DNA of 64,000 nt, taken from an uncultured Nonlabens sp. Lineage in GTDB: Bacteria > Bacteroidota > Bacteroidia > Flavobacteriales > Flavobacteriaceae. Both the position numbers and the translations under genes were made by a program. Positions within the stretch are counted from its first letter, which is position 1. Every line of letters starts with the position of its first letter. Shown one piece after another: positions 1,913 to 42,948 of the stretch. Where the stretch lies: assembly GCA_947491755.1 (NCBI GenBank), contig CANLKV010000005.1:27103-91102 (forward strand), in the 5' to 3' direction. The notes beneath the pieces were generated by a model. It saw only the letters and a list, made by a program, of their open reading frames with translations. It was not told the DNA's origin and ran no database searches.

Positions 1913-3280
1913 TCACACAGTCATAGAAAATAGTCGTGTCTGTGGTTTTTTACGTTGCAACCTCAGGTCAAAGGGCAAACAAACGTTACGTACGTAGGGT
2001 TTACCAGCCTCAGTAACCGTTAAGCGGCCTTCCTCTAATTGTACCAGCCCATCTTGTTGCATTTCTTTCAGCTGGGTATGGATTGTATCTAGTGCCGGCA
2101 GGTATAGATCATCGGTCTCCCAGGATGTCTCAAACTGGCACATGATGTTTAAAATATGTTTTCTAACTATCAAATCTTCTTTATCTAATAAGTGCCCGCG
2201 TAGGAGTGGCAATTGATCTTCTTTGAGACACTCATAATATTCTTTAAGTGTTTTTACATTTTGCGCAAATCCATACCAGCTATCTCCTATGGCAGATACG
2301 CCCAGGCCTATCATGACATCTGTTTTTGAACTGCTATACCCCATAAAATTGCGATGTAATAGGCCGTTTTGCAAGGCTCGACACAGGTCATCTGTAGGTA
2401 AGGCAAAATGATCCATACCTATCTCTATATAACCTGCCTGCAGCAACATTTTTTTACCGGTTTCATATTGCAGCCGTTTTTGTTCTGGTGACGGTAGATG
2501 TTCCTCACTATACCCACGCTGCCCATTACCCTTGATCCACGGTACGTGTGCATAGCTATAGAACGCAATACGATCTGGCATAAGCCTTATGGTTTGTTCA
2601 ATCGTGTGAATTACGTGTTGATGCGTCTGGAAGGGTAGGCCGTAAATTATATCGTGTCCCACAGATGTAAAACCAAATTTTCTTGCCTGGATGGTTGCCT
2701 GCGCCACATTTTCAAAGGGTTGTACCCTATTGATTGCAATCTGGACGGTCTCGTTATAGTCCTGTACGCCATAACAAACTCTAGTAAATCCTTGATTGCT
2801 AAACATTTTTAAATGTGCCGGTGTCGTATTATTAGGATGGCCTTCAAAACTTAAGTCTGCGCTAGGGGTTTTAGGAACGATCCTAAATATCCCTGTAAGT
2901 AAATCATCTAGATTTTCAGCACTAAAAAATGTAGGTGTTCCACCGCCCAGATGCAATTGCTGGATTGCCAGACGATCGCCTATAAAATCTTTATATAATT
3001 GCAATTCTTTAAGCAGCGCTTTGATATAAGGACGCTCGACCAGATGATTTTTTGTGATCCGTTTAGTACAACCACAAAATGTACACATACTCTCACAAAA
3101 TGGGAGGTGAATGTACAAAGAGATAGCTGTGGTATGTTCGCTTTCGCGAAAGCGTAAACCCCTCAACAAACTATGCTTCCAACCGGCTGTGGTAAAAGAC
3201 GCCTCATCCCAGTATGGGACGGTAGGATAGCTGGTGTAACGAGGTCCAGGAACATTGTATTTACTAACCAATGCATCCAT
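1913..3280 (-). CDS. hemN: Oxygen-independent coproporphyrinogen III oxidase (radical SAM)
   Basis: KYNVPGPRYTSYPT, YIHLPFCESMCTFCGC (CxxxCxxC), HLGGGTPT, LHRNFMGY. Confidence 0.95.
   Translation of the reverse strand: MDALVSKYNVPGPRYTSYPTVPYWDEASFTTAGWKHSLLRGLRFRESEHTTAISLYIHLPFCESMCTFCGCTKRITKNHLVERPYIKALLKELQLYKDFIGDRLAIQQLHLGGGTPTFFSAENLDDLLTGIFRIVPKTPSADLSFEGHPNNTTPAHLKMFSNQGFTRVCYGVQDYNETVQIAINRVQPFENVAQATIQARKFGFTSVGHDIIYGLPFQTHQHVIHTIEQTIRLMPDRIAFYSYAHVPWIKGNGQRGYSEEHLPSPEQKRLQYETGKKMLLQAGYIEIGMDHFALPTDDLCRALQNGLLHRNFMGYSSSKTDVMIGLGVSAIGDSWYGFAQNVKTLKEYYECLKEDQLPLLRGHLLDKEDLIVRKHILNIMCQFETSWETDDLYLPALDTIHTQLKEMQQDGLVQLEEGRLTVTEAGKPYVRNVCLPFDLRLQRKKPQTRLFSMTV
3139..3154. repeat. 16-bp palindrome copy, perfect, inside hemN (RFRES)
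   Basis: CGCTTTCGCGAAAGCG. Confidence 0.95.
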
Positions 3281-5322: not shown

Positions 5323-5721
5323 ATGAAAAACTCCATTTTGTACAGCATTCTATTTTTAAAATGTCCCCAATGCAGGCAAGGAGAGTTTTTAAAAGAAAAC
5401 CCTTACCACCTGTCACGCATGAATGCGGTGAGATCTAGATGTCCACGCTGTGATCTCAAATACAGCATAGAACCTAGTTTTTATACAGGGTCGATGTACG
5501 TTTCTTATGCGGTAGGTATTGCATTTGCGGTTGCTACTTATGTAGTGTTGTTAATTTTGGGTCATGCAGATGATCCACTCACTATATTTATATCAATTGT
5601 GGTTGTGCTTGCTCTAACCTTTCCTTACATTGGTGCTGTTTCTAAAGCAATATGGGCGCATTTATTTATAAAATATGATGCTGTTATTGCAAAACAGGCA
5701 AAAAATGAATCCCGAACTTAA
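5323..5721 (+). CDS. DUF983 family membrane protein
   Basis: CPQC...CPRC, EPSFYTGSMYVSY, two TM helices; start reassigned to ATG 5323, downstream of the promoter. Confidence 0.8.
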   Translation: MKNSILYSILFLKCPQCRQGEFLKENPYHLSRMNAVRSRCPRCDLKYSIEPSFYTGSMYVSYAVGIAFAVATYVVLLILGHADDPLTIFISIVVVLALTFPYIGAVSKAIWAHLFIKYDAVIAKQAKNESRT

Positions 5722-6331
5722 AAAACATTACGGTTCTCTATTTGAACCAGAATTGCTCCAGCAGATTGATGATGTGTCCACCCTTTTAACAGTAGTAGAA
5801 GGCACCGCTCTCATTAAACCTGGACAGTATATACGCTCCATGCCTTTATTACTATCTGGCAGTATAAAAATAATGCGAGCAGATGAGCAGGGTAATGAAT
5901 TGTTGCTTTACTACCTAGAAAAAGGTGATACCTGCGCAATGACCATGAGCTGTTGTATGGGAACGACAAAGAGTGAAATCCACGCTATTACAGAAACTCC
6001 TACCGAGGTATTGATGATCCCCATAATCAAAATGGAAGAGTGGTCTAGTAAATACAAAACCTGGCGTAATTTTGTCTTTTCCAGTTACCATGATCGCATG
6101 ATGGAGCTGCTGGAAAGTCTCGACAATATTGCTTTCAACAACATGAATGAACGCTTAGGCAATTACCTTAAAGATAAAGTTGCTGTTTTAGGAAGTCAGC
6201 ATATTCATGCTACACACCGGGAGATCGCTGCAGATCTGAATACAAGCAGGGTAGTCATATCACGCCTGCTTAAAAACATGGAAAACAATAATCTTATAGA
6301 ACTGCATCGCAATTTTATCAAGCTGCTGTAA
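5705..6331 (+). CDS. Crp/Fnr family transcriptional regulator
   Basis: cNMP-binding-like N-domain (LLSGSIKI, LYYLEKGDTCAMT) and C-terminal HTH (THREIAADLNTSRVVISRLLK); likely start MNPEL. Confidence 0.9.
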   Translation: MNPELKKHYGSLFEPELLQQIDDVSTLLTVVEGTALIKPGQYIRSMPLLLSGSIKIMRADEQGNELLLYYLEKGDTCAMTMSCCMGTTKSEIHAITETPTEVLMIPIIKMEEWSSKYKTWRNFVFSSYHDRMMELLESLDNIAFNNMNERLGNYLKDKVAVLGSQHIHATHREIAADLNTSRVVISRLLKNMENNNLIELHRNFIKLL

Positions 6332-6371
6332 CAAGAGTTACAAAAGGAGCTTTTGAGTTAAAATACCTTTG
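6327..6371 (+). promoter_or_regulatory. Crp/Fnr-type box TGTAAC-AAGA-GTTACA plus -7 TACCTTTG
   Basis: Perfect palindromic arms 6327-6342 overlapping the regulator stop codon; consensus -7 at 6364-6371. Confidence 0.75.
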
Positions 6372-6388
6372 TAAATGAAAGTAATTAC

Positions 6389-7177
6389 ATGGATATTTTA
6401 GGATACATAGGTTCACTTGTTATAGGTATTGTTTTAGGTCTTATAGGTGGTGGTGGCTCTATTCTTACCGTGCCCCTACTTGTCTATGCACTGGCACTAC
6501 ATCCAGTTATTGCAACAGCTTATTCCCTATTTATCGTAGGTACGACTGCACTGGTAGGTGCGGTTAGAAATATGGTAGCGGGCAAAGTTGACTATAAAAC
6601 AGCGGTAATATTTGCTATTCCTGCATTGATAGCCGTGTATGCTACTCGCGCTTTTCTTTTACCTGCGCTTCCTGACGTTCTATTCACCATAAGCGATGTA
6701 ATCATTACTAAAGAGCTAGGAATCATGTTATTTTTTTCAATCATCATGTTGCTGGCTGCAGTATCGATGATAAAACCGCAAACTAAAGCCATTGAAGACT
6801 CTACCCCTATCACCTACAACTATCCGCTCATACTGGTTGAAGGAATTCTGGTAGGGATCATAACAGGTATTGTAGGAGCTGGCGGCGGGTTTTTAATTAT
6901 CCCTGCACTGGTGCTATTGGCTAAATTACCTATGAAAAAAGCCGTAGCTACCAGCTTACTTATTATCGCAATCAAATCGTTAATAGGTTTTATAGGAGAT
7001 GTACAACAAATGGATATTGACTGGGGATTTTTAAGCTTATTCACCAGCCTATCTGTATGTGGAATCTTTATAGGTATCTGGCTGAACAAATTTATTGATG
7101 GAGGCAAACTCAAAGCTGCCTTTGGGTGGATGGTATTATTTATGGGTATTTATATAATTTATAAAGAGTTATTTTGA
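6389..7177 (+). CDS. Sulfite exporter TauE/SafE family protein
   Basis: GLIGGGGSILTVP and GIVGAGGGFLIIP repeats; about 8 TM. Confidence 0.9.
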   Translation: MDILGYIGSLVIGIVLGLIGGGGSILTVPLLVYALALHPVIATAYSLFIVGTTALVGAVRNMVAGKVDYKTAVIFAIPALIAVYATRAFLLPALPDVLFTISDVIITKELGIMLFFSIIMLLAAVSMIKPQTKAIEDSTPITYNYPLILVEGILVGIITGIVGAGGGFLIIPALVLLAKLPMKKAVATSLLIIAIKSLIGFIGDVQQMDIDWGFLSLFTSLSVCGIFIGIWLNKFIDGGKLKAAFGWMVLFMGIYIIYKELF

Positions 7178-7584
7178 TGAGAACAAGATTAATTATTATC
7201 GCTACATGTCTTTTAATTTATATGACCAGCCTTGTAGCCTGCGCACAAAATGACACTATAAAAAATGACCCACAGGTGCTTACTCCTATCGCGTTCAAAG
7301 AACAAATAGAAAAGCATACCGTACAGCTAATTGATGTGAGAACTCCTGCAGAGTATGAGTCCGGCCATATAAATGGGGCACGCCTGATCAACTTTTTCGA
7401 TACAACGGCCTTTCATTCAAAAATTGATAGGCTAGATAAAACAAAACCTGTGTATTTATACTGCCGTACGGGTAAACGCAGCCATCAAGCGGCAATCATT
7501 TTACGCGATAAAGGTTTTAAACACGTTTATGATTTAGCAGGCGGCTATAACAATTGGTTAAAGTATATGAAATCAAAAGATTGA
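7174..7584 (+). CDS. Exported rhodanese-like domain protein
   Basis: Signal peptide; LIDVRTPAEYESGHINGA and active-site loop YCRTGKRS. Confidence 0.88.
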   Translation: MMRTRLIIIATCLLIYMTSLVACAQNDTIKNDPQVLTPIAFKEQIEKHTVQLIDVRTPAEYESGHINGARLINFFDTTAFHSKIDRLDKTKPVYLYCRTGKRSHQAAIILRDKGFKHVYDLAGGYNNWLKYMKSKD

Positions 7585-7629
7585 AACTGGATAAACATGT
7601 TTGCAACAATTTGTTAAAAGTCCTGGTTG

Positions 7630-7674
7630 TGTATCAATAGTTACTGTAAAGATCTGTGACTCCTTTTAATTTTA
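7630..7674 (+). promoter_or_regulatory. Crp/Fnr-type box TGTATC-AATA-GTTACT plus -7-like TAATTTTA
   Basis: One mismatch to GTAAC-N4-GTTAC; same 21-nt gap to the -7-like element at 7667-7674. Confidence 0.6.
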
Positions 7675-7688
7675 TTAAAAATAATATT

Positions 7689-9017
7689 ATGAACATCAAA
7701 CAATTTGAATACAAACCATTAGCCCATTATTCCTACGCCATTGTTAGTGATGGCAAGATGGCAGTAATTGATCCAGAGCGCGATGCGTCTATATATTACG
7801 CTTTCGCGAAAGCGAACAAAGCACAAATCGTCGCGGTTATTCAAACACATCCACACGCAGATTTTGTAAGTTCTCACCTAGAGATCCATCACGAAACGGG
7901 AGCGACTATTTACAATAGTGAAAAATTAGGAGCAGACTACCCACATGCACCATTTGATGAAGGTGCAAGCATCAAAATGGGAGCAGTCACATTGAGAGCA
8001 ATCAACACGCCTGGACATAGTCCTGATAGTATTACCATCGTTGCACAGGAAGGCGACTCGACCGCACTATTTACAGGAGACACCTTGTTCATAGGCGATG
8101 TAGGGCGTCCTGATTTGAGGGAAACTGTGGGTAACATGACTGCAAAACGTGAAGAACTTGCAGAAATGATGTACCATACTATAAATAATAAATATAATGA
8201 TCTACCCGATGATGCTGTGGTTTATCCTGCTCATGGCGCTGGGTCATTGTGCGGTAAAAATTTGAGCGACGCAGCCAGCAGCACCCTGGGTGATGAGAGA
8301 CGCAATAACTGGGCGTTTACCACTACCCGTAAGGAAGACTTTATGAAAGAGCTACTGGATGGACAACCTTTCATTCCATCCTATTTTGTTTATGACGTTG
8401 ACCTCAATAAGCAAGGAGCACCTTCAATTAACCATACAAGAAATAAAATACCTTTTGAAAAAAAGGGAAGTCCATCAGGTTTGATCATAGATACCAGACC
8501 AGAGTCTGTTTTTAAAAAAGGGCATATTTCTGGTAGTTATAATATTCAAGCCGCCTATCCCACCTCCAAATTTGAGACGTGGCTAGGTGCTGTTGTACGT
8601 CCAGAAGAATCTTACACTCTAGTTATAGATCAAGAAGAAAACAAAGAATCTATTATTGATCGGGTATCAAAAATAGGATACGAGATAGCACTAGAGAAAA
8701 TAATCACTATTGCCGATCATTCTTTACAACAAACACCTATACTGGATCTAGCTCATTTTAAAGCTCATACAGATCAATATACTGTTGTGGATATACGCAA
8801 TCAAAGTGAAATAGACCAAGGTAAGTTTTTTGATAAGGCACTAGCACATCCATTGAACAACTTAAGAGACACAGCAAAAAATATCCCCACAGATCGACCC
8901 ATCGTGGTGCATTGTGCGGGTGGCTATCGTAGTGCTGCTGGCAGCAGTATTGTACAACAAATACATCCAGATGCACAGGTGTACGATTTGAGCGAGGCAG
9001 TAAAAGAATTCCAGTAA
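7689..9017 (+). CDS. MBL-fold hydrolase/persulfide dioxygenase fused to rhodanese domains (CstB-like)
   Basis: THPHADF, TPGHSP, FTGDTLFIGDVGRPDL, YPAHGAGSLCG; C-terminal rhodanese VHCAGGYRS; likely start MNIKQF. Confidence 0.88.
   Translation: MNIKQFEYKPLAHYSYAIVSDGKMAVIDPERDASIYYAFAKANKAQIVAVIQTHPHADFVSSHLEIHHETGATIYNSEKLGADYPHAPFDEGASIKMGAVTLRAINTPGHSPDSITIVAQEGDSTALFTGDTLFIGDVGRPDLRETVGNMTAKREELAEMMYHTINNKYNDLPDDAVVYPAHGAGSLCGKNLSDAASSTLGDERRNNWAFTTTRKEDFMKELLDGQPFIPSYFVYDVDLNKQGAPSINHTRNKIPFEKKGSPSGLIIDTRPESVFKKGHISGSYNIQAAYPTSKFETWLGAVVRPEESYTLVIDQEENKESIIDRVSKIGYEIALEKIITIADHSLQQTPILDLAHFKAHTDQYTVVDIRNQSEIDQGKFFDKALAHPLNNLRDTAKNIPTDRPIVVHCAGGYRSAAGSSIVQQIHPDAQVYDLSEAVKEFQ
7799..7814. 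repeat. 16-bp palindrome copy, perfect, inside the MBL gene (AFAKA)
   Basis: CGCTTTCGCGAAAGCG. Confidence 0.95.
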
Positions 9018-9064
9018 AAAAGACAACACCATCATACCAATTGATTTAAAAAACAAAATAAAAT

Positions 9065-9625
9065 ATGGAATACCTACTTAAAGAGCCATGGCCATGGTAC
9101 GCTGCAGGACCGCTTATTGCACTTACTTTAATGATATTATTATTATTGGGCAAGACCTTTGGCATGTCGTCTAATCTTAGGACAGCTTGTGCTGCAATGG
9201 GTGCCGGCAAGGCTTCTGACTTTTTTAAATTTGACTGGAAATCGCAACGCTGGAACTTACTTGTGGTACTGGGAGCGATAATCGGTGGCTGGATTGCTGC
9301 AACCTATATGAGTACTAGCACGGTCGCAATCAATCCACAAACTGCAGCACAGTTAGCTACAGATTATGGCATCACCAGCGCAGGGACCGCCTACCTACCT
9401 CCTGAAATTTTTGCATCTGTTAATTTAACAAGTCTTGAAAATTGGCTCATCTTAATAGGAGGTGGATTTCTGGTAGGTTTTGGCGCACGATACGCTGGTG
9501 GTTGCACCTCTGGTCATGCCATTACAGGATTGAGTAATCTACAACTGCCATCATTAGTTGCGGTCATCGGGTTTTTTATAGGTGGTTTAGTGATGATCAA
9601 CTGGATTTACCCACTAATTTTTTAA
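9065..9625 (+). CDS. YeeE/YedE family sulfur-compound transporter subunit
   Basis: PWPWYAAGPLI and GFGARYAGGCTSGHAI motifs. Confidence 0.9.
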   Translation: MEYLLKEPWPWYAAGPLIALTLMILLLLGKTFGMSSNLRTACAAMGAGKASDFFKFDWKSQRWNLLVVLGAIIGGWIAATYMSTSTVAINPQTAAQLATDYGITSAGTAYLPPEIFASVNLTSLENWLILIGGGFLVGFGARYAGGCTSGHAITGLSNLQLPSLVAVIGFFIGGLVMINWIYPLIF

Positions 9626-9627
9626 AC

Positions 9628-10041
9628 ATGAAAACATTATCTTATTTGATCACAGGAATATTTTTTGGCATTGTTATGTTTAAGTCAGAGGCTGCATCCT
9701 GGTTTCGTATTTACGAGATGTTTACTTTCGGTAGTTTTCATATGTACGGTATTATAGGTTCTGCTTTAATACTAGGAATTATTGGTATTCAGATTTTAAA
9801 AAAAACAAATAGTAAAGCCCTAGGTGGTCAGGAATTGCAACTAGCGGCAAAAGATCGTAGTTACCCTAGATACTTGCTAGGCGGAGTGATTTTTGGACTG
9901 GGCTGGGCACTTGCAGGCGCTTGTCCAGGCCCCATGTACGTGTTGCTAGGCGCCGGCTACGGCTCGATAGCTCTGGTTATTATAGGTGCGCTCATAGGCA
10001 CTTTTACTTATGGCGTTTTGAGAAATAAATTACCTCATTAA
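9628..10041 (+). CDS. YeeE/YedE family partner subunit (DUF6691-like)
   Basis: GGVIFGLGWALAGACPGP motif. Confidence 0.85.
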   Translation: MKTLSYLITGIFFGIVMFKSEAASWFRIYEMFTFGSFHMYGIIGSALILGIIGIQILKKTNSKALGGQELQLAAKDRSYPRYLLGGVIFGLGWALAGACPGPMYVLLGAGYGSIALVIIGALIGTFTYGVLRNKLPH

Positions 10042-10045
10042 TCCA

Positions 10046-11503
10046 TCACGCCATTCTATTGATCATGGAGTGGGCAGATAAAATACGTAAGGCCTCCCAT
10101 TGTACTTTAGGATTATTACGATAGGAATAAATGACGTCTGCAGCATGTTTTCTCGTCACTGCAATATCCACAATAGGTCTGGGGTAATCGATGCCATAAT
10201 TAAAATCATGGTATTCGTTTAATTCTTGTTCCAGCAGCCACGGTTCCCTAGCAAACCGGGCAGACAATGGCCTCAACTCTGGAATGTATTGCTTTATAAA
10301 CAAGGCATCGGGATCATGATCCTGTGCCCCTTTTACTGGATTGTAAATGCGCAAGGTGTTTGTGCCAGTTAGTCCTGCTTGCATCTGGAATTGCCCGTAA
10401 TGAATACCAGGTTCCCAATCTAGAAAGCAGGCTGCCAGATAGGCACTGCCTGTGGTAAAATGTTGGAACAGATGGTGGCATAAAAATGAGACTACTAGCG
10501 CACGCATCCTGAAGTTGATATAACCCGTTTCTCGCACGGCGCGCATCGCAGCATCAACTAGCGGGTATCCCGTTTTTCCCTCTTTCCACGCTTTTACATA
10601 ATCGGCATTGTAGGGGTATTTGAGCGATTGATATCCACGATTGATTGCTTCAAACTCGATGCGTGGTTCCTGTTCAAATTTTTGAATAAAATGGCTTTGC
10701 CATCGCAACCTGCTGCTAAAGGCACTGAGTGATTTTTTATAAGGAGTTTTAACTCTCTCATTTTCAGTACGCTGAAACACTTGCCGAATGGATACATTTC
10801 CCCAGGCGATGTATGGGGACAAACGACTACAGCTCATACGCGACAGTAAGGGTTTTGAAATATGGGCTGCATAAAACCTGGAGCGTTGTAAAAAAAATGA
10901 GTCCAACCATTGATGGGCCTGGCGTTCCCCACCTTGTTGAAATCTTTGTGAGCTAACTGTTAAATCAAGCGGTGTAAAGAGGTTTAAAAAGGAGTCCGCT
11001 TTCGCGAAAGCGAAATTACCCAAAGCTACATTACACAAGGGCTTGCACATATACTCATACCAATCTTGAGACCAGGTACTACGATTTTTTGCCCCACGAA
11101 CGACTCCATTGTTTTGAAATTCCTGCCAGATGACCTTATGGGTTTTACACCATTTTTTTACCTGCTTATCACGCGTGTAGGTGTGATCCAGTCCAGACTC
11201 TTCTGTGCTATGGATGCGCCCTATACCGTGGTGTCTATGTAGTTTTTCAAAAAAGGGAATCGCATCTTCTGTGACGGCCATGACCTGTGCGTTGTATCGC
11301 GCTAGGCTTGCATTCATATCTTCTAGCGACTGCTTTACAAAATTTAAATGCCGCTGTGAATAATGAGCATTACGCCATATGCTAGGTTCGTGCAAATAAA
11401 CCAATAAGACAGGATTATCTAAGGTTTGAAAGGCTTGTAATCCTTCTAGATCTGACAGTCGCAAATCTCTTTTGAACCAGTAAATATGAAGACCTGCCCC
11501 CAT
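10046..11503 (-). CDS. Cryptochrome/photolyase family protein
   Basis: YWFKRDLRLSD, SRLSPYIAWG, TGYPLVDAAMR, LRIYNPVK; -7 element TAAATTTG at 11524-11531. Confidence 0.88.
   Translation of the reverse strand: MGAGLHIYWFKRDLRLSDLEGLQAFQTLDNPVLLVYLHEPSIWRNAHYSQRHLNFVKQSLEDMNASLARYNAQVMAVTEDAIPFFEKLHRHHGIGRIHSTEESGLDHTYTRDKQVKKWCKTHKVIWQEFQNNGVVRGAKNRSTWSQDWYEYMCKPLCNVALGNFAFAKADSFLNLFTPLDLTVSSQRFQQGGERQAHQWLDSFFLQRSRFYAAHISKPLLSRMSCSRLSPYIAWGNVSIRQVFQRTENERVKTPYKKSLSAFSSRLRWQSHFIQKFEQEPRIEFEAINRGYQSLKYPYNADYVKAWKEGKTGYPLVDAAMRAVRETGYINFRMRALVVSFLCHHLFQHFTTGSAYLAACFLDWEPGIHYGQFQMQAGLTGTNTLRIYNPVKGAQDHDPDALFIKQYIPELRPLSARFAREPWLLEQELNEYHDFNYGIDYPRPIVDIAVTRKHAADVIYSYRNNPKVQWEALRILSAHSMINRMA
10997..11012. 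repeat. 16-bp palindrome copy, perfect, inside the photolyase-family gene (AFAKA)
   Basis: CGCTTTCGCGAAAGCG. Confidence 0.95.
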
Positions 11504-11700
11504 TTTGCTTGCTTTTGTCTACACAAATTTAAGCACTGGCCTCTGATTTTGATTTCTTGCGTTCTTTATACCATGAGTATCCTTGCCATACTACTTGTGC
11601 TACTGTCAAAATCCTGAATAACTTTTTCATTTTTATTTTAATATACAGCTATTAGTGCGATGATAAACAGTAGTTTGCGTTAGTTTAACGACATAAAAAG

Positions 11701-12237
11701 TTAAAGAAAGTCCAGGATCTCTGGTTGTAATTTTTCCTCTCCATTTTCTTGCGTGTGTAGGACGCTCACATCGCCAGTGCTTTCTAGCACGGCAGCCTTT
11801 ACTTGAGAGAATTGCAAGACGTTTGCCTCTCGCAATTTTGCCATTAATTCCGATCGATGCAAATTTGTTTTTGACAGATTTTCTTCTAAAATTTTACCAT
11901 CCTTCATCAACAAAACAGGCTCGTTTGTCGCACACTGCCGAAATTTATTAGATCGCCGCTGTACCACTGCAAAGCCTATTTGAAAACAAACGATAGTGAT
12001 CAATCCCACAGCACCATTGCCTATAGAAACCGTTGGATTGAGTGATATAGACCCTAGTATGGTTCCTATAGCAATGGTAGTTGCAAAATCAAAACTGGTC
12101 ATTTTTGCAAAAGTGCGCAGACCCGCTATCCTTGTGACTAGTATGAGTATAAGAAAAATAACCACCACACTTATTACAATAATAAGAGATGTATCAAAGC
12201 CTGGTAATAACCAGGTATCTATGTCAGAGAGTTTCAT
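11701..12237 (-). CDS. DUF421 (YetF-like) membrane protein
   Basis: GLRTFAKMTSFDF, PVLLMKDGKILEENL, AVLESTGDVSV. Confidence 0.88.
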   Translation of the reverse strand: MKLSDIDTWLLPGFDTSLIIVISVVVIFLILILVTRIAGLRTFAKMTSFDFATTIAIGTILGSISLNPTVSIGNGAVGLITIVCFQIGFAVVQRRSNKFRQCATNEPVLLMKDGKILEENLSKTNLHRSELMAKLREANVLQFSQVKAAVLESTGDVSVLHTQENGEEKLQPEILDFL

Positions 12238-12243
12238 AACTTA

Positions 12244-12879
12244 TTATTTTTCAGATTTTAGTAATTGATGTGCCGCATTAAACTGACTCTCGAGCGTTGA
12301 ATAATCTGTAAAGCCTCGAGTTACTACGGCGGCCTTATTATCGTCTACCAGCAATACAGTAGGAAACCCATTGACCTGCAGCTGGGCCGTTAATTTAAAA
12401 TCAGCCTCGGCTTTTTGACGGTATCGAGAGTCTTCCATCATTTGGGCAAATTGTTTGGTATCCAGCCCGTGAGCTGTTGCTAGATCAATATAGGTTTGTG
12501 ATTCAATGGGCTGGTGACCGTAGTAATAAATCGCCTTTTGTATATCTGCCGCAAATGCTAATTGACTGGCTGGACGCAACTCTTTAAAAGCAACCATTGC
12601 TATGGCAGCTGGTATGGAGGTAAAGATGGCACTTCCCTCTTCCAGTATATCGGTAAGAAATGATTCACCAAATTTTACTCCAGCGCGCTGTTCTACATCT
12701 TTATAAGCGCTAGAAATGTAGGCGGCAACTTCTCCAATAGGTCCTATACGATCACCAGTAATCATACCGCCAGACACGACCTCGCATTCTAATTTCTTAT
12801 CATTTACAAGCTGCTGGATCACGGGAGAAAAACCGTAACACCAGCCACATAAAGCATCATAAACATATATTATTTTCAT
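12244..12879 (-). CDS. DsbA/FrnE-family thioredoxin-fold protein, no signal peptide
   Basis: YVYDALCGWCYGF (CxxC) and cis-Pro loop GFPT. Confidence 0.88.
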   Translation of the reverse strand: MKIIYVYDALCGWCYGFSPVIQQLVNDKKLECEVVSGGMITGDRIGPIGEVAAYISSAYKDVEQRAGVKFGESFLTDILEEGSAIFTSIPAAIAMVAFKELRPASQLAFAADIQKAIYYYGHQPIESQTYIDLATAHGLDTKQFAQMMEDSRYRQKAEADFKLTAQLQVNGFPTVLLVDDNKAAVVTRGFTDYSTLESQFNAAHQLLKSEK

Positions 12880-12939: not shown

Positions 12940-14103
12940 CTATAGATGTGTATCTTTTAATATGTTGAAACTTACGGGTACCTCGTGTTCCATAAGTATC
13001 TCAACGGCATTTGTAAGTGCTTTGTTAAGCACTGGGTCTTTACTCATATAATGATACATTTCTTTAAAACAATAACTTGCTAAAGTAGCGTTAGAAAGGT
13101 GCTGCACATATACAAAATGCTTACCGTCCATGCTATACGCATTATTGCCTTTTAAATCATTACGTTTGACCAGTAACTGGGTAATATAGTCAATAGCAGA
13201 TAAAGAGGTTCCTGGGTCATTTATTGCTGGAGAAGCGCCTTTTATAGCTACTTCTACCAGATGCTTAATTTCTGTCTCATTTAACTCCAGTGGAACCCGA
13301 GAATCAACAGAGACTTGTTTGCTAAAATTATGAGCCTGGTCGTCGATGGAAGAAGAAGTCCTGAGAAGCAATTGATTTTCCAACACAAACACGCCAGGCT
13401 GCACTTCTATTGAGATATGTGCCTGCTGCTTATAAGCAAGCTGTGCTAATGATTTTAATTCTGGTAGTTGTAGGTACCCACAATCTTTTGCTTTGATTGT
13501 ATCCCATGTTTTCATAGTTGTGGGCAACTGCTCTATAGTCCCATATTTTTCTAAATCCAGTAAGTCGTTTAAGTTTTTAAGCGAACGGTCATAACTTTTA
13601 CGCAGAATGTAATTGACGTGAATTGACTGTGAAACACTATGAATAAAATAGATAAACAGGAAAACACAGCAAATACTAAAAACTACACCTAAAAAAGCCC
13701 CAAATGGCGGAAATTCCCTGGTAGTATTACTGCTTACTGCTATGGACATAATCATAGCATATACAATAGTACCACTTGTAAAACCCAGTATAAGCTGGTG
13801 ATTGCGTTCTGATAGTATTAAAGGGATTAAACGTGGGGAGTAATTATTGATACTGCGATTGAGTACGTTCATTACCATAGTATAACTAAAAACAGTAAGA
13901 GTAAAAATACCACCGATGATAAAGGCAAAAATAAATTGCAATTCGGATGTACCTAAAATAACTACCGATTTAAAATATCCAGGCAGTAATTGATGGTCAA
14001 AAGGGAATATAATTTGAAGTACTGATAATAAAGCAAAAAATAGCGCTATGCCAGTAGGCAATAGCGCTATACTATTATAAATCCTGCGGATGATGGACAG
14101 CAA
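12940..14103 (-). CDS. DUF2254 family membrane protein
   Basis: YSPRLIP, AIKGASPAINDPGT motifs; N-terminal TM bundle; TTG start 1 nt after the ClR stop. Confidence 0.85.
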   Translation of the reverse strand: MLSIIRRIYNSIALLPTGIALFFALLSVLQIIFPFDHQLLPGYFKSVVILGTSELQFIFAFIIGGIFTLTVFSYTMVMNVLNRSINNYSPRLIPLILSERNHQLILGFTSGTIVYAMIMSIAVSSNTTREFPPFGAFLGVVFSICCVFLFIYFIHSVSQSIHVNYILRKSYDRSLKNLNDLLDLEKYGTIEQLPTTMKTWDTIKAKDCGYLQLPELKSLAQLAYKQQAHISIEVQPGVFVLENQLLLRTSSSIDDQAHNFSKQVSVDSRVPLELNETEIKHLVEVAIKGASPAINDPGTSLSAIDYITQLLVKRNDLKGNNAYSMDGKHFVYVQHLSNATLASYCFKEMYHYMSKDPVLNKALTNAVEILMEHEVPVSFNILKDTHL

Positions 14104-14104
14104 T

Positions 14105-14923
14105 TTAGGCTTCTTTAAATTCCATACCTAAACGACCCAGTGCTTGCTGGGCAGGCACATATCCTGCTGCGGCAGATTGCTTTATGGCTATGTAAGAAAT
14201 CATAAGTCCATAAACTACCTTACTAGAAATATCTGCAACAGTAAATAGAAATTGACGCAACACGACACCGTCTGCGGTATTCATAAAATAAGGAACCAGG
14301 TAAGCTATAGGATATAAAGTCCAGGCAAACATCATTAACCAGAAAACTTTTTTAATTGTGCTATCTGCACCTCCTAGCATGGTTGATCGTTGTGTAAAGA
14401 TTTTAGTTCCAACAATAAAGTTCATGATTACAAATAACACAGTACTTATTGCTCCCCATATCATGAGTTGACTTATATCTTCCACTTCATATAATTGACC
14501 TACATAACCAGTAATTATCATACCCCAGGCCGCAATAATCAACCATGTAGCGGTAGAAAATAACGATTTACCTTTAAGGTTGAGAACAATAAGCAATTGG
14601 GTTAATAAACAAGGAATTGTTGCCATCCAGTTGACATAACGGTAACCATTTGAAAAGGTTAAATCTTGCAATCTATATGCGCCATCTTTATAGGCAAAAG
14701 CATCAGTCCACATAGCTGCCTGGCTGTATAAAATAAGACCAGCACTTACCATTACTATACAAGATAGTGCGGTGGCCACTCTATATTTAGGAGCAACAAA
14801 TTGTGAAATGATTAGAAAGAAAAATAGCGCTGCAAAATGCACGCCTACTCCCATGGTTAATAAATGATCGATTAATTCAAATTGACCGGTTGTATAGTCA
14901 AAGAGATTTTCAATGTTATTCAT
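14105..14923 (-). CDS. Light-driven chloride pump rhodopsin, NTQ type (NM-R3/ClR-like)
   Basis: Helix C YRYVNWMATIPCLLTQL gives N-T-Q; retinal Lys in DISSKVVYG; 272 aa from MNNIENLF. Confidence 0.93.
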   Translation of the reverse strand: MNNIENLFDYTTGQFELIDHLLTMGVGVHFAALFFFLIISQFVAPKYRVATALSCIVMVSAGLILYSQAAMWTDAFAYKDGAYRLQDLTFSNGYRYVNWMATIPCLLTQLLIVLNLKGKSLFSTATWLIIAAWGMIITGYVGQLYEVEDISQLMIWGAISTVLFVIMNFIVGTKIFTQRSTMLGGADSTIKKVFWLMMFAWTLYPIAYLVPYFMNTADGVVLRQFLFTVADISSKVVYGLMISYIAIKQSAAAGYVPAQQALGRLGMEFKEA

Positions 14924-15152
14924 GTTGTTAATTTTGATTGTGTGTGCTAAATGTAGGACCGTGCCATTCATGACGGTGTGAACATTTCCTGAATTAGACT
15001 TTAATTAACGGAAAAAGACTCTTTTTAAGAGCTAATTATCTTAACAAAATGGATAATTGATAAAAATAAAGGGCTGAGAAAGATAATAACCTCTCAATTT
15101 TACAAAACAATTGCTAATGCTGATCGATGCTTTATCGGTAAAAAAGAGCACC

Positions 15153-15575
15153 TTATTTAGGATTGAGGTCACCCAGCAGTAAAAATGGCCTAAGCAGGCG
15201 TTGCATCTTGTCACTCACAGGATGCTTGTGGTTTGTAGCTAGAAATGTTTGTATTTGCTCCAGGTCTGCACCGGTTTTAACTACATTAAATTTTGAATCG
15301 TATTGATTGAATATAGGGTAATCAGTAGGTCCTTTGAATATTTCAAAAATTGAGTTGTGTCGCGGGTCTGCCTTGATCTTATCAAACAAAGTAGACACAT
15401 AGATCTCACTGCCCTCCAGCACTTGAAAAAAGTTCCCCTCGCTGTGCAATAATATTCCAGTAACATTAGCTTGAGTGTTATTCTGTACAGAGTAGGAAAA
15501 TAAATGCTCTAATATATCAGTGCTTAGATCTGTGGATGATTTACTGATATAACAAATGGAATAATACTGTTTCAT
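15153..15575 (-). CDS. Stand-alone BLUF domain protein 1
   Basis: CYIS (Tyr), NVTGILL, FFQVLEG (Gln), DPRH. Confidence 0.92.
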   Translation of the reverse strand: MKQYYSICYISKSSTDLSTDILEHLFSYSVQNNTQANVTGILLHSEGNFFQVLEGSEIYVSTLFDKIKADPRHNSIFEIFKGPTDYPIFNQYDSKFNVVKTGADLEQIQTFLATNHKHPVSDKMQRLLRPFLLLGDLNPK

Positions 15576-15731
15576 TAATGTAAAAAGGACAACTTTAAAT
15601 TTATCCTACAATATACGGCAAGATTTTTTTTATGATCAACTTTAATAATCAATTATATAAAAAAAGCTAGACAGGTTTTTAAGAAAATGTAGTTTTTATG
15701 GTTTGACCGCTTTTATTAAAAATCGCAGTAA

Positions 15732-16133
15732 CTATTCTAATCCTAGAAAGGATTCAATCTGGTGAACCATACCAGGTTTAACGGCGGTTTTCTTGCGGCG
15801 TTTTAAGTATTCTTTGATGACTATAACATCATATTCGGTAGAGATTAGGTTGAATTGCGAGCTGTATTCTTTAAAAACTGGATCTACCGTTCTCTCGTGA
15901 AACAATTCCACCAGGCTATCGTGACGACTATCTTCTTTGATTTTATTGTACAGTGACTCTACTGCCAGACGATCTCCTTCCAGTACCTGAAAGAAATTAC
16001 CCTCATTAAATAATAATAAACCATTGATGTTGCTAGAAACATTAGACCGACTGGAGTACTGTAGTAATTCTTGTATATCCTGTGTAGAAAGGTGATCTGC
16101 CGCTCTACTTATATAAGCAATAGTATATAACAT
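15732..16133 (-). CDS. Stand-alone BLUF domain protein 2
   Basis: AYIS, NINGLLL, FFQVLEG, DSRH. Confidence 0.92.
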   Translation of the reverse strand: MLYTIAYISRAADHLSTQDIQELLQYSSRSNVSSNINGLLLFNEGNFFQVLEGDRLAVESLYNKIKEDSRHDSLVELFHERTVDPVFKEYSSQFNLISTEYDVIVIKEYLKRRKKTAVKPGMVHQIESFLGLE

Positions 16134-16254
16134 ATTACTGTAAAAGTCCGAATAATTATGGACTCTACCTACTTCTTAGAGCACACACCGCTATCTTACC
16201 TAGATGGTGTGGACACCTTCACCTTATAGTTTTAAATAGGTAGGGTATTCAGTT

Positions 16255-16270
16255 CGCTTTCGCGAAAGCG
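16255..16270. repeat. 16-bp palindrome copy, perfect, intergenic; extends to a 24-bp palindrome at 16251-16274
   Basis: AGTTCGCTTTCGCGAAAGCGAACT in the divergent BLUF2/NaR intergenic region. Confidence 0.95.
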
Positions 16271-16465
16271 AACTCATCACCACAGCAGCATCACAATTTA
16301 CATTTTATTAAAAATATTATGAGATCTGTTATAAAATGGCTTATAAATAAAAGAATAAGTTAAAAATACAATGTATTTTATAATGTTTCATTAAAACGGA
16401 TCGTAAAATTTTTTAGACTAAAACTCTTGTCAGAACTTTAAAACAAATCGAAAAAACTTACAATC

Positions 16466-17305
16466 ATGCAACAATTAGGCGATGCAAATTTTGAAAATTA
16501 CATAGGAGCCACAGAGGGCTTTTCTGAGATGGCATATCAAATGACTTCTCACGTTCTTACATTAGGTTATGCTGTAATGCTAGCTGGTCTTTTATATTTT
16601 GTTCTTACGATAAAGAATGTAGATAAAAAGTTTCAAATGTCTAATATTTTGTCTGCCGTTGTTATGGTGTCTGCATTTTTATTGTTGTACGCACAAGCAG
16701 GCAACTGGACGGATAGCTTTACGTTTGATGCTTCTAGAGGAAAATATTTCTTGAATCCAGATGGGGATTTATTCAATAATGGTTATCGTTATCTCAACTG
16801 GCTGATTGATGTACCCATGCTGCTGTTTCAAATTTTGTTTGTAGTAACATTGACAAAATCAAAATTCAGCTCTATTCGTAATCAGTTTTGGTTTTCAGGT
16901 GCGATGATGATTATTACTGGATATATTGGACAATTTTATGAAGTGTCAGACAAGCCTCTCTTCTTCATATGGGGAGCAGTCTCTACCTTGTTCTTCTTCC
17001 ACATTTTATGGTTGATGAAAAAAGTAATCAACGAGGGTAAAGAGGGAATTTCTCCTAAAGGTCAGAAAATACTAAGTAATATCTGGGTTTTATTTTTAGT
17101 ATCGTGGTTCCTATATCCAGGAGCCTATTTAATGCCTTATCTAGGTGGCCTGGACGGGTTCTTGTATAATGAATCTGGTGTGGTAGGACGTCAAATCACT
17201 TACACGGTTGCTGATGTTTGCTCAAAAGTGATTTACGGTATTTTACTAGGTAATCTTGCAATGACTTTAAGCACTAAAAAGAATATCGAAAGTGTCAATG
17301 GATAA
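16466..17305 (+). CDS. Light-driven sodium pump rhodopsin, NDQ type (KR2/NaR-like)
   Basis: YRYLNWLIDVPMLLFQI gives N-D-Q; retinal Lys in DVCSKVIYG; KR2-like N-terminal helix NFENYIGATEG. Confidence 0.95.
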   Translation: MQQLGDANFENYIGATEGFSEMAYQMTSHVLTLGYAVMLAGLLYFVLTIKNVDKKFQMSNILSAVVMVSAFLLLYAQAGNWTDSFTFDASRGKYFLNPDGDLFNNGYRYLNWLIDVPMLLFQILFVVTLTKSKFSSIRNQFWFSGAMMIITGYIGQFYEVSDKPLFFIWGAVSTLFFFHILWLMKKVINEGKEGISPKGQKILSNIWVLFLVSWFLYPGAYLMPYLGGLDGFLYNESGVVGRQITYTVADVCSKVIYGILLGNLAMTLSTKKNIESVNG

Positions 17306-17321
17306 TTTTATCATCCAAGTT

Positions 17322-17354
17322 AAAAAAACCAGCGCAAGGCGCTGGTTTTTTTTT
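17322..17354 (+). terminator. Intrinsic terminator after the NaR gene
   Basis: AAAAACCAGCGC-aag-GCGCTGGTTTTT followed by a T-run. Confidence 0.85.
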
Positions 17355-17475
17355 TATTTAGGTGCAACCTGACAGCTTCAATAGTTTAAAATAACGATGA
17401 CCGTAAGTATTATCGAGAGATACCGGTAAATATGATAGGTACACACCATGGTAGCCATTGCTACAGAAGTTACAG

Positions 17476-18015
17476 CTAGACGAGTGAAAGGAATGACTCA
17501 CAACAATAATTGGGAATGGTTTTTTTATATTGAATCCATTTCTGACTTTGGTCAAAGCCTATGCCCTGTTACAGTAATGGACGACAATTAAGTTTTTACC
17601 TTTCCCACACAGTGCACTTGCTCACTTCGCACATCGATAGAGCCAATTGATAAGTATTTCTCAAGGTGGTGCGTAACGCATTTAGGCTTTCCCTATTGTA
17701 ACTATTGTCGAGAGCATAAAGTTCTTCGCCTTTATCTAGATTTTTAGAACTTAAAAATCCTTTAGAGTATTCTGATACTATTTATTTAAACCTTAACTAC
17801 ATATTTGCGGCATCAATGGGATAAAAATTAATTCTATGCCCATCCTCAAACAACTCAAATTTTAAGAATTGAATATTCCCTTTATCGTGTTTTTCAAGCA
17901 ATCTAAAATTACCATTAAGTGATTAGTTTAATTCCTGGATCATTGTAAGAGCGCCCTGATCCAAAAAAGCTACAATTTTATCAAGCTGTTTCTTTGGGAT
18001 ATCTATAATTTTTGT
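17476..18015 (-). pseudogene. Probable decayed ORF of unknown family
   Basis: One minus frame reads protein-like for about 180 codons (IPKKQLDKIVAFLDQGALTMIQELN*SLNGNFRLLEKHDKGNIQFLKFELFEDGHRINFY...) with only five TAA/TAG interruptions; boundaries approximate. Confidence 0.45.
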
Positions 18016-18152
18016 GGGATACACGTGTTAAAAACAGATATAATTATTTTTTGATCGTCATCCTTGTATTGATTTGAACAATAGTCAAGCACTATGTATT
18101 ATATTATACAAGTCCTGACTAACGAGTCAACTGTATCACAAGTGAATCAAAA

Positions 18153-41971: not shown

Positions 41972-42015
41972 TTAGTTTTGTATAAGTTTATCTTTTATTT
42001 GTTAAACAAAACTAA
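41972..42015. promoter_or_regulatory. Candidate operator upstream of the CarH/LitR-type gene
   Basis: 10-bp inverted repeat TTAGTTTTGT...ACAAAACTAA with a nested TTTGTT-A-AACAAA palindrome. Confidence 0.4.
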
Positions 42016-42033: not shown

Positions 42034-42948
42034 GTGATACGCACTACTTTTTCTATTAAAGATCTCGAAAATTTGAGCGGTATAAAAGCGCATACCATTC
42101 GTATATGGGAAAAGCGCTACGATCTACTCACACCCATGCGCAGCGATACGAACATACGCTATTATGACCTACAATCCTTACAAAAAATACTGAATGTAAG
42201 TTATTTAAAAAGTACGGGAAGTAAGATAAGTGCTATCGCAGCTTTATCTGATAAAGAGATTGAACAAGAGGTACGCAAGCTGGCACAAAAAACTCATCAG
42301 TCAAATCATTTACTGCAGGAGTTGAAGCTTGCAATGGTCAACTTTGATCAAGAATTGTTTAATAGTATTTATGACCGTGAAATGGAAAAAGGAGATTTTT
42401 CAACGGTTTTTCATAATTTATTAATTCCATTTTTAGAGGAATTAGGTAGACTCTGGCACTCAAACACGATCAATATAGCCCATGAACATTTTATTAGTAG
42501 CTTGATCAAACAAAAATTACTAGTAGAAATAGAACATGCAGCCTTACCATTTGAGAAAAAAAATGAGGAGCCTTTCATTCTATTCTTACCAGAGAATGAA
42601 ATGCATGATATAGGCTTATTATTTTTAAATTATAAATTGTTGAAATCTGGATACAACACGATCTATTTAGGGGCAAGTATGTTGTTAGACTCTCTTACTT
42701 TTTTTCAACGCAACGGACAGAGACCCATTTTTATGACATTCATAACTGTGGAGCCCACACCTAAAAAAATACCACGATTCCTAGAACAGTTTAATAAAAA
42801 AATGGATCATGCGCACCTTATTCTTATGGGGCGTGCCATGTCTCAAGTAAGTCACAAGCATTTGAGTGCTAACCATCACGTGATCAATAGCTATGATCAA
42901 ATTGAGAAATTTATACAGCAACAACTGGAAGAGCCTGCTATGGTATAA
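42034..42948 (+). CDS. MerR-family, B12-binding CarH/LitR-type regulator
   Basis: MerR HTH (FSIKDLENLSGIKAHTIRIWEKRY); W-x9-EH (WHSNTINIAHEH) and E-x-H-x-x-G (EMHDIG); heads the crt cluster. Confidence 0.85.
   Translation: MIRTTFSIKDLENLSGIKAHTIRIWEKRYDLLTPMRSDTNIRYYDLQSLQKILNVSYLKSTGSKISAIAALSDKEIEQEVRKLAQKTHQSNHLLQELKLAMVNFDQELFNSIYDREMEKGDFSTVFHNLLIPFLEELGRLWHSNTINIAHEHFISSLIKQKLLVEIEHAALPFEKKNEEPFILFLPENEMHDIGLLFLNYKLLKSGYNTIYLGASMLLDSLTFFQRNGQRPIFMTFITVEPTPKKIPRFLEQFNKKMDHAHLILMGRAMSQVSHKHLSANHHVINSYDQIEKFIQQQLEEPAMV

Follow-up and report, generated by a model that had tools for sequence, protein, structure and literature searches.

Genes and features of the locus

The window, i.e., the whole 64-kb stretch of Nonlabens DNA that was analysed, carries between positions 14105 and 17305 two rhodopsin genes with two BLUF genes between them, in the confirmed order ClR (−), BLUF1 (−), BLUF2 (−) and NaR (+). 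This order and orientation had been given in the initial annotation, together with the pump types (NTQ for ClR, NDQ for NaR) and the lack of an output domain in either BLUF; all of these points were upheld by open reading frames with Pfam and PDB matches, by alignment of the motifs to the chloride pump of N. marinus and to KR2, and by Pfam, which gives BLUF alone in each of the two small proteins. The gene identities are far above chance. The features are as follows:

12940..14103, minus strand: DUF2254 membrane protein, encoded after ClR in the same operon (Pfam PF10011, E 1e-59)
14105..14923, minus strand: ClR, NTQ chloride-pumping rhodopsin (Pfam Bac_rhodopsin; 272 aa from the likely start)
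14948-14955, minus strand: -7-like box TACATTTA, 21 nt past the ClR promoter motif
14977..15009, minus strand: ClR promoter/operator motif GTTAAT-N7-TAATT-N9-TTCACA, conserved across relatives
15153..15575, minus strand: BLUF1, stand-alone BLUF, 140 aa (Pfam BLUF, 77 bits)
15732..16133, minus strand: BLUF2, stand-alone BLUF, 133 aa (Pfam BLUF, 84 bits)
16251..16274, no strand: perfect 24-bp palindrome AGTTCGCTTTCGCGAAAGCGAACT between BLUF2 and NaR, a copy of a genome-wide REP-like element
16466..17305, plus strand: NaR, NDQ sodium-pumping rhodopsin, 279 aa (Pfam Bac_rhodopsin, E 4.5e-54)
17322..17352, plus strand: intrinsic-terminator-like hairpin (14-bp stem and T run), directly 3' of NaR

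Besides the two rhodopsins and DUF2254, the neighbours are genes for DsbA-like and YetF-like proteins, a photolyase, DUF2383 and an exonuclease; a response regulator, an EAL/PDE protein and a MerR-type protein were sought among them, and no partner or regulator gene was found in the BLUF locus. A search of public sequencing runs for the locus gave no match.

The gaps between the genes had been described as short. They measure 229 bp between ClR and BLUF1 (181 bp from the longest ClR reading frame), 156 bp between BLUF1 and BLUF2 and 332 bp between BLUF2 and NaR, which leaves 156–332 bp of upstream DNA for each BLUF gene; since every gap could hold a promoter of its own, the description is inaccurate. 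The sole truly tight junction is that of ClR and DUF2254, which begins at a TTG 1 nt past the ClR stop. Terminator prediction gave none between BLUF2, BLUF1 and ClR, and thus read-through into ClR would be possible; NaR is apparently monocistronic. An Rfam scan yielded only terminator-like chance matches. A sigma-70 promoter scan was uninformative, since promoters of Bacteroidota use -33/-7 elements, and a hand scan for TAnnTTTG found weak boxes only, near the BLUF genes and NaR.

Membership in the NTQ class is judged by Asn-Thr-Gln at the positions of D85, T89 and D96 of bacteriorhodopsin (BR) and by the retinal-binding Lys of helix G. In ClR the three residues are found in 'NWMATIPCLLTQ' and the Lys in 'DISSKV', in a residue-for-residue alignment with the N. 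marinus pump, which is also its best PDB match (6ab9/5g28/5b2n, ~520 bits, ~85% identity). The longest ClR reading frame spans 14105-14971 on the minus strand (Bac_rhodopsin, E 4.5e-50); translation most likely begins at Met17 (14923), because all relatives have 272–274 aa and the ATG at 14971 falls inside the conserved promoter. NaR matches KR2 best (3x3b/4xtl, ~510 bits, ~85% identity), with N-D-Q in 'NWLIDVPMLLFQ' and the aligned Asp and Lys in 'ADVCSKV'. From these identities to characterised pumps, ClR is predicted to be a light-driven inward transporter of Cl- and NaR a light-driven outward transporter of Na+. In green light ClR moves Cl- in and NaR moves Na+ out, and both render the inside more negative; the earlier wording of a "complementary charge movement" is therefore misleading.

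Both BLUF proteins lie above the Pfam gathering cut-off of 25 bits (PF04940). They are 41% identical to each other and are old paralogues in a family of short BLUFs widespread among Flavobacteriaceae, in which tandems are common at other loci too. BLUFs bind flavin and sense blue light via a Tyr-Gln pair, which we take to be Y21/Q63 in AppA and Y8/Q50 in PixD; those without output domain work by binding partner proteins. The pair is kept in BLUF1 (Y9, Q51; alignment with BlrP1) and in BLUF2 (Y7, Q49; alignment with bPAC). At the Trp position there is Tyr (Y92 and Y90, respectively), and at the position of the beta5 Met, presumably the signal relay at M106 of AppA and M93 of PixD, there is Ser (S94 and S92).

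Judged from the sequence alignment, none of the 92 family members has Met at this beta5 position; 72 have Ser or Thr there, and 89 have Tyr at the Trp position. Such substitutions would suit proteins that are not classical photoswitches, i.e., which bind flavin and report, e.g., redox state, or which photocycle without the canonical beta5 output; their position beside the pumps would then be irrelevant to light control. This explanation is unlikely. The photochemical core is conserved (the flavin-pocket residues Gln, Asn and His do not vary, and 91 of the 92 members have the Tyr), and Met mutants of studied BLUFs keep the red-shifted photocycle. The fold with its C-terminal helices likewise matches BlrP1 and PixD: the AF2 model of BLUF1 (pLDDT 82) has the BLUF domain of BlrP1 as top match (TM 0.72), and the top Foldseek matches are all BLUFs (E 3e-10, TM 0.6–0.7), in agreement with a beta-alpha-beta-beta-alpha-beta-beta fold.

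The ClR operon and the promoters of the pumps

DUF2254, a conserved partner of ClR which the initial annotation had not mentioned, directly follows ClR, in the same orientation, in 33 of the 46 species-representative ClR loci and in every one of ten additional ClR loci examined. The pairing spans two classes of Bacteroidota, often with blh as the next gene, and a metagenome scan with ClR returned three loci, each with ClR-DUF2254, two of them then with blh and all without BLUF. ClR-DUF2254 is thus a broadly conserved unit, and DUF2254 is translationally coupled to ClR. Its AF2 model (pLDDT 89) consists of four transmembrane helices and an alpha/beta domain; searches found neither a fold match (best E 0.36) nor a sequence match in the PDB, nothing in NCBIfam and no Pfam family besides PF10011. 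In the literature, searches found no paper connecting DUF2254 to rhodopsin and none connecting BLUF to NaR or ClR. The blh gene was found neither at the locus of the window and its relative L207 nor anywhere in the 64-kb window, where its position is taken by the DsbA-like, YetF-like and photolyase genes.

The ClR promoter motif occurs once in the 64-kb window. Its end lies 46–53 nt upstream of the ClR ATG in the window and in L207, L209, L081, L210, L211, L082 and L218/L220, and motif and spacing are the same whether a BLUF gene adjoins or not.

Upstream of NaR, about 120 nt are conserved with L207, the NaR of which is 97% identical. At NaR loci of Dokdonia, Gillisia, Winogradskyella and N. 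tegetincola the upstream region contains the dyad TGTTTAA-N16-TTAAACA; in contrast, the window has none there, and a search of the window found no dyad near NaR, ClR or the BLUF genes. The dyad is present in 18 of the 20 closest NaR loci and is missing from all three loci in which NaR is linked to BLUF2. The same kind of dyad stands at 41979-42008 of the window, ahead of its CarH/LitR-type gene, which spans 42034-42948. We infer that it is an operator for LitR, and its presence at both NaR promoters and the CarH/LitR-type gene suggests a B12-dependent light control of sodium pumps.

Two further elements were considered as operators and rejected. The 9-mer TTAATGAAA, which stands upstream of both ClR and NaR in the window and in L207, is not conserved at NaR of the cultured Nonlabens sp. 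YIK11 or at ClR of L218; no motif common to the NaR and ClR promoters was found. The palindrome in the BLUF2-NaR gap is one copy of a REP-like element that recurs across the genome; the 16-nt core has 15 copies in the 64-kb window (0 expected), and the element also stands upstream of ClR in L210, L082, L211 and L081. The region is plastic, as seen from the REP copies, from a stretch of 800 bp in the window that is missing from L207 and from the flanks in YIK11, which differ from those in the window.

Distribution of the BLUF-pump linkage

The initial annotation had proposed a self-contained module in which BLUFs tune both pumps, and had named a lack of conservation of the arrangement as speaking against it. 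Synteny across NTQ/NDQ-bearing Bacteroidota showed no conservation of the arrangement. Among species-representative loci, a BLUF gene (searched by HMM) is found no more than 8 kb from ClR in one of 46 and no more than 8 kb from NaR in one of 80. Conversely, a rhodopsin of any kind is near BLUF in one of 80 BLUF loci; the usual context there is rpoD-BLUF-rpe (rpe in 63 and rpoD in 49 of the 80). Given a few BLUF genes per genome of 3–5 Mb, about 1–2% would be expected by chance, and the proximity of BLUF and rhodopsin in species-representative genomes is at chance level. ClR and NaR were not found within 8 kb of each other at any locus of these genomes; at least 19 genomes carry both, at distances of 47 kb to 1.4 Mb when on the same contig.

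This distribution bears on the idea that the BLUFs bind the cytoplasmic face of ClR or NaR and adjust its pumping activity under blue light. Adjacency, and the general mode of action of short BLUFs by protein-protein contacts (PixD-PixE, PapB-PapA), would be compatible with such gating, but most pump-bearing genomes have no linked BLUFs, ClR and NaR of relatives function alone in heterologous hosts, and the PDB holds many crystal structures of isolated pumps. Between the window and L207 the pumps are 92–97% and the BLUFs 67–70% conserved, a difference that gives no hint of a close interface under co-evolution. We regard gating as highly improbable.

The linkage is kept in a single Nonlabens subclade, comprising the window, a MAG contig, YIK11 and three metagenomic lineages; the linked set (window, L207, YIK11, L218-220 and L221/222, with L226 as an intermediate) forms one clade. 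L207 is collinear with the window across 18 kb, and its identical arrangement may therefore be due to mere common descent. Elsewhere the flanks are replaced, and still each BLUF type keeps its neighbour, BLUF1 the ClR operon and BLUF2 the NaR gene. In YIK11, L218-220 and L221/222 the BLUF1 orthologue lies beyond blh at the opposite end of the ClR operon, to which it is convergent; at rearranged loci the BLUF2 orthologue remains divergent beside NaR (as it is in L207 and YIK11), while all remaining neighbours have changed. In YIK11, light induced NaR ~2,600-fold and ClR ~200-fold under nutrient limitation; PR, at a separate locus, was light-induced as well (PMC4831467). Since the NaR of YIK11 responds so strongly without a dyad, another photoreceptor must act there. 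Linkage surviving the change of flanks, loss of the dyad and light induction in YIK11 together make a lineage-specific BLUF input plausible.

A clade-specific control of transcription in blue light could thus be considered, of NaR by BLUF2 and of the ClR operon by BLUF1, with a DNA-binding partner encoded elsewhere, as in BlsA-Fur or BluF-BluR; it would replace the dyad-operator control of NaR in other genera. We treat this as a tentative alternative. The pairing of BLUF1 with the ClR operon and of BLUF2 with NaR occurs in two or three configurations with changing flanks, exactly the BLUF2-linked NaR loci are without the dyad, and the light responses of NaR and ClR in YIK11 and the conserved flavin pockets are in accordance with it. 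The readable BLUF1 homologues of at least 53% identity adjoin the ClR operon (in L207, L209, L218-220 and L221/222), except for one, L226, which is in a BLUF tandem resembling that of the window. However, all of this goes back to a single evolutionary origin in a single clade, and the statistics are weak; a BLUF1-like gene of 51% identity (L223-225, contigs of 2 kb) does not adjoin ClR. The induction of PR in YIK11 from a separate locus, and light-induced rhodopsins in genera without linked BLUFs, also speak against it, as do the identical ClR promoter motif in BLUF-less relatives, the lack of a partner gene in the locus and the lack of a motif shared by the two pump promoters.

Interpretation and comparison with known systems

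What remains of the earlier interpretation are the pump types, the output-less BLUFs and their order, but not the conserved module. The best explanation, to which we assign a probability of about 0.5, is a lineage-specific island of light-related genes in separate transcription units. ClR heads the ClR-DUF2254 operon under its own conserved promoter motif, and NaR stands by itself, with a strong terminator. The pumps should be independent of adjacent BLUFs, since nearly all genomes with ClR or NaR do without them. BLUF1 and BLUF2 would most likely be general sensors of blue light (or of flavin or redox state), with partners encoded outside the locus, and could have been placed between the pumps in a single event, before one Nonlabens subclade diversified; the region often undergoes rearrangement. 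Any BLUF control of the pumps would then be a secondary, clade-specific addition. The island reading is favoured by the negative broad synteny, the BLUF-independent ClR motif, the conserved ClR-DUF2254 pair, the plastic region and the lack of a local regulator; against it stand the subclade linkage that outlives rearrangement, the missing dyad at BLUF2-linked NaR and the missing terminator from BLUF2 through BLUF1 to ClR.

The locus bears on the light sensing behind the induction of rhodopsin pumps in marine flavobacteria via a cultured relative, in which each pump has a clade-specific BLUF paralogue as its neighbour and a widely conserved dyad has been lost from the NaR promoter. It is conceivable, though doubtful, that in one subclade BLUF2 (for NaR) and BLUF1 (for ClR-DUF2254) took over light control from the dyad operator, which was probably under B12-dependent control by CarH/LitR. 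Such regulation of retinal-based ion pumps by a flavin photoreceptor would be the first of its kind, and the BLUF responsible would be a variant with Ser for the canonical signalling Met. Two leads are perhaps weightier than the BLUF idea, namely, the DUF2254 coupled to ClR and the dyad common to NaR and the CarH/LitR-type gene. Should no reading hold, the locus would be an ordinary juxtaposition of known genes.

Comparison with known systems shows the following. With the short BLUFs PixD/Slr1694/Tll0078, BlrB, BlsA and PapB, and with the BLUF domain of BlrP1, the BLUFs of the window share the fold and two C-terminal helices (23–31% identity to solved BLUFs in fold alignments), as well as the flavin-pocket Tyr-Gln-Asn-His and the lack of an output domain; they differ from canonical short BLUFs by the beta5 Ser for Met and Tyr for Trp and, unlike PixD-PixE, PapB-PapA and BluF-BluR, they are not adjoined by a pixE-, papA- or regulator-like gene. 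The ClR operon of relatives resembles marine rhodopsin-blh operons (retinal synthesis) in having blh (PF15461) last, as in PR-blh pairs, but has DUF2254 between rhodopsin and blh. The window ClR is ~85% identical over 273 residues to ClR/NM-R3 of Nonlabens marinus S1-08 (PDB 5B2N, 5G28, 6AB9), a different species, and has in common with it the N-T-Q motif, the retinal Lys and the C-terminal tail. NaR has the equivalents of N112/D116/Q123, D251 and K255 of KR2 from Krokinobacter (Dokdonia) eikastus (3X3B, 4XTL); unlike KR2, it has a BLUF gene divergently upstream. Similar to the B12-dependent, light-responsive repressors CarH/LitR, the window encodes a protein with MerR-HTH and B12-binding domains beside a crtI-like gene.

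Genes at the locus

Gene content and order were as proposed in the initial annotation, namely ClR (the NTQ chloride-pumping rhodopsin, - strand), BLUF1 (-), BLUF2 (-) and NaR (the NDQ sodium-pumping rhodopsin, +). By its nearest relatives, the source of the window is a Nonlabens-like flavobacterium. Pfam assigned the outer genes to Bac_rhodopsin (E 4.5e-50 for ClR and 4.5e-54 for NaR) and the inner two to BLUF (77 bits for BLUF1, 84 bits for BLUF2; cut-off 25); in both of the latter the BLUF domain stands alone, and the reported lack of an output domain was thus confirmed. ClR is about 85% identical over 273 residues to the Nonlabens marinus chloride pump, and alignment to this protein showed N-T-Q and the retinal Lys to be present. 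NaR is about 85% identical to the sodium pump KR2, with N-D-Q, Asp and Lys present. Both pumps add new members to families already known.

Since all relatives have 272–274 amino acids and the ATG of the longer ClR ORF (14971) lies within a conserved promoter, Met17 at 14923 is the most probable start of ClR. The BLUF1-ClR spacer, with this start, measures 229 bp; BLUF2-BLUF1 is separated by 156 bp and the divergent pair BLUF2-NaR by 332 bp, so that the gaps, contrary to what had been thought, are not short. No terminator was predicted between BLUF2, BLUF1 and ClR. The stretch from 14 to 18 kb is slightly AT-richer than the whole window (GC 0.35 versus about 0.40). Neighbouring features were:

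12940-14103, - strand, DUF2254 membrane protein, starting 1 nt past the ClR stop
17322-17352, strong terminator-like hairpin at the 3' end of NaR

ClR and DUF2254 are, judging from the 1-nt gap, predicted to be translationally coupled. DUF2254 was located directly 3' of ClR, with the same orientation, in 33/46 species loci ranging from Flavobacteriaceae to Saprospiraceae/Lewinellaceae, and in each of the 10 additional ClR loci inspected; blh (PF15461) followed it in 12/46 species loci and in most close relatives. An AF2 model (pLDDT 89) contained four TM helices and an alpha/beta domain, for which the PDB held neither a fold relative nor a sequence relative; no link between DUF2254 and rhodopsins was found in the literature searched. 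A second subfamily, sharing about 30% identity with this one, occurs just upstream of ClR, usually divergently, in eight loci (L084, L086, L087, L090, L092, L094, L096, L122), also in L216, and downstream of NaR in four (L146, L151-L153). Because it is also found beside NaR, the family seems tied to rhodopsin pumps generally and not to chloride.

Distribution of the pump-BLUF linkage

A collection with a single genome for each species gave 80 loci surrounding homologues of BLUF1, 46 surrounding those of ClR and 80 surrounding those of NaR, which were scanned by tblastn, phmmer and a BLUF HMM; close relatives of the window are under-represented in this collection. A BLUF gene was present within 8 kb of ClR in 1/46 loci (L085) and of NaR in 1/80 (L148), about 1.7 kb away in each case, which does not agree with the self-contained module that had been proposed, with synteny as a check. 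A rhodopsin was near one of the 80 BLUF loci. NTQ and NDQ pumps shared none of the species-level loci; both occurred in at least 19 genomes, 47 kb to 1.4 Mb apart when on a shared contig. Chance adjacency was estimated at about 1–2%, from a few BLUF genes per 3–5 Mb genome, and outside the window's own clade BLUF-pump adjacency is not enriched over chance. Tandem BLUFs are also common at other loci. The flavobacterial short BLUF usually lies between rpoD, the gene of the primary sigma factor, and rpe (rpe in 63/80 loci, rpoD in 49/80), a conserved position which might hint at a partner. Examples, with single or multiple BLUFs, are L005, L007, L009, L013, L014, L016 and about 40 more.

The closest relative, a 37-kb MAG contig (L207), has the same gene arrangement (amino-acid identities: NaR 97%, ClR 92%, BLUFs 67–70%), and adds little, since it is collinear with the window across the whole 18 kb compared. 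Nonlabens sp. YIK11 has the order NaR<- / BLUF-> / two sugar-nucleotide/glycosyltransferase genes / ClR-> DUF2254-> blh-> <-BLUF. The BLUF gene that adjoins NaR there is orthologous to BLUF2 (identity 45% to BLUF2 versus 37% to BLUF1), and the one after blh is orthologous to BLUF1 (53% to BLUF1 versus 36% to BLUF2). L218-220 and L221/222, two more lineages from metagenomes, share the layout ClR-DUF2254-blh followed by a convergent BLUF1-type gene. Another metagenomic lineage, L226, is an intermediate form: BLUF2-type and BLUF1-type genes stand in tandem, and after them comes a stretch on the reverse strand which, by eye, is like the YIK11 NTP-transferase gene at the same position.

Across the subclade, NaR, BLUF2, BLUF1, ClR and DUF2254 remain linked while flanking genes are exchanged for others. 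The identity of DUF2254 to the window copy is 65–72% inside the subclade and 44–59% in BLUF-less Nonlabens loci; ClR-DUF2254-blh without BLUF or NaR was present in N. ponticola, N. antarcticus, N. spongiae and loci L081 and L211. A BLUF1-like gene of 51% identity was found on 2-kb contigs, with ClR not adjacent. The linkage is limited to one clade and probably had one origin there. As evidence for selection on linkage this synteny is real, albeit weak, since it comes from one clade. The locus is read here, with a probability of about one half, as a light-gene island specific to this lineage and made up of independent units, in which the adjacency of pumps and BLUFs would have arisen once.

Promoters, candidate operators and flanks

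Promoters and operators were assigned by conservation:

14977-15009, - strand, ClR upstream motif GTTAAT-N7-TAATT-N9-TTCACA
41979-42008, sole intergenic copy in the window of the NaR dyad TGTTTAA-N16-TTAAACA, 26 nt upstream of the following gene
42034-42948, + strand, MerR-HTH and B12-binding gene, CarH/LitR-type, adjoining a crtI-like gene

The ClR motif ends about 50 nt 5' of the ATG, at a fixed distance, and a -7-like box comes after it. It occurs in Nonlabens-type ClR loci with and without BLUF neighbours, and its conservation points to a putative regulator of the ClR operon. The dyad, about 55 nt upstream of NaR, was present in 28/81 NaR loci versus about 1 expected. Of the 20 loci nearest to the NaR of the window, 18 had it (Dokdonia, Gillisia, Winogradskyella, N. 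tegetincola and others); ClR loci never did. The full dyad preceded 15/79 homologues of the MerR-B12 gene, and in most of those inspected a half-site was fused to the -7 box. We infer a putative CarH/LitR operator; NaR would then fall in a B12-dependent light regulon, predicted for most Flavobacteriaceae.

The dyad is missing from all three BLUF2-linked NaR loci, including that of the window. In YIK11, light induces NaR more strongly than any other rhodopsin gene (PMC4831467), yet this NaR is without the dyad. In the main rival explanation, the BLUFs of the subclade would relay a blue-light signal to the transcription of NaR and ClR. This is considered possible but less likely than the island of independent units.

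A perfect 24-bp palindrome in the BLUF2-NaR spacer was ruled out as a specific operator, being one of 15 copies in the window (about 1 per 4 kb) of a REP-like palindrome with the core CGCTTTCGCGAAAGCG, at 3139, 7799, 10997, 16255, 21551, 24490, 28606, 35437, 40233, 46561, 48193, 54158, 56739, 60001 and 62609. The copy at 10997-11012 is in frame within the photolyase ORF and encodes FAFAKA.

Between the NaR terminator and DUF2383, 17353-18150 (about 800 bp) contained no convincing ORF and no Rfam match; L207, collinear elsewhere, lacks this stretch and has about 270 bp at the corresponding point. Downstream of DUF2254, 10046-12879 (-) carries genes for a DsbA-like thioredoxin-fold protein, a YetF/DUF421 membrane protein and a photolyase/cryptochrome-family protein, which in the window and L207 occupy the position of blh in relatives. 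No blh, proteorhodopsin or third BLUF was found within the 64-kb window. The region 5675-10041 (+), collinear with L207, resembles a gene cluster for sulphur handling. It begins with a Crp-family regulator, after which come TauE, a rhodanese, a metallo-beta-lactamase that carries rhodanese domains, and split sulphur-transport genes of the YeeE/YedE type.

BLUF proteins and possible mechanism

Both proteins have the BLUF fold and, C-terminal to it, two helices; the AF2 model (pLDDT 82) matched the fold of the BlrP1 BLUF best (TM 0.72). The flavin-pocket Gln, Asn and His were present in 92/92 family members and Tyr in 91/92. Sequence alignments to BlrP1 and bPAC, from which the beta5 residues were assigned, gave Tyr instead of Trp in 89/92 and, at the signalling Met position, Ser or Thr in 72/92 and Met in 0/92. 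Both replacements are a trait of the flavobacterial short-BLUF family (window 15153-15575 and 15732-16133; L001-L080). By these alignments the window BLUFs would belong to a hitherto undescribed Ser-for-Met variant family. That they are not classical photoswitches is regarded as unlikely.

With the locus read as an island of independent units, the pumps would act as in characterised relatives; because both would hyperpolarise the cell, their charge movements, contrary to what had been suggested, would add and not complement each other. On the same reading, the BLUFs would be blue-light sensors for partners whose genes lie elsewhere. Direct gating of the pumps by the BLUFs is regarded as very improbable. 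Pump-BLUF linkage was not reported in the literature searched, and a functional tie is a plausible candidate. Near the BLUFs at this locus there is no gene of a PixE-, PapA- or BluR-like partner type.
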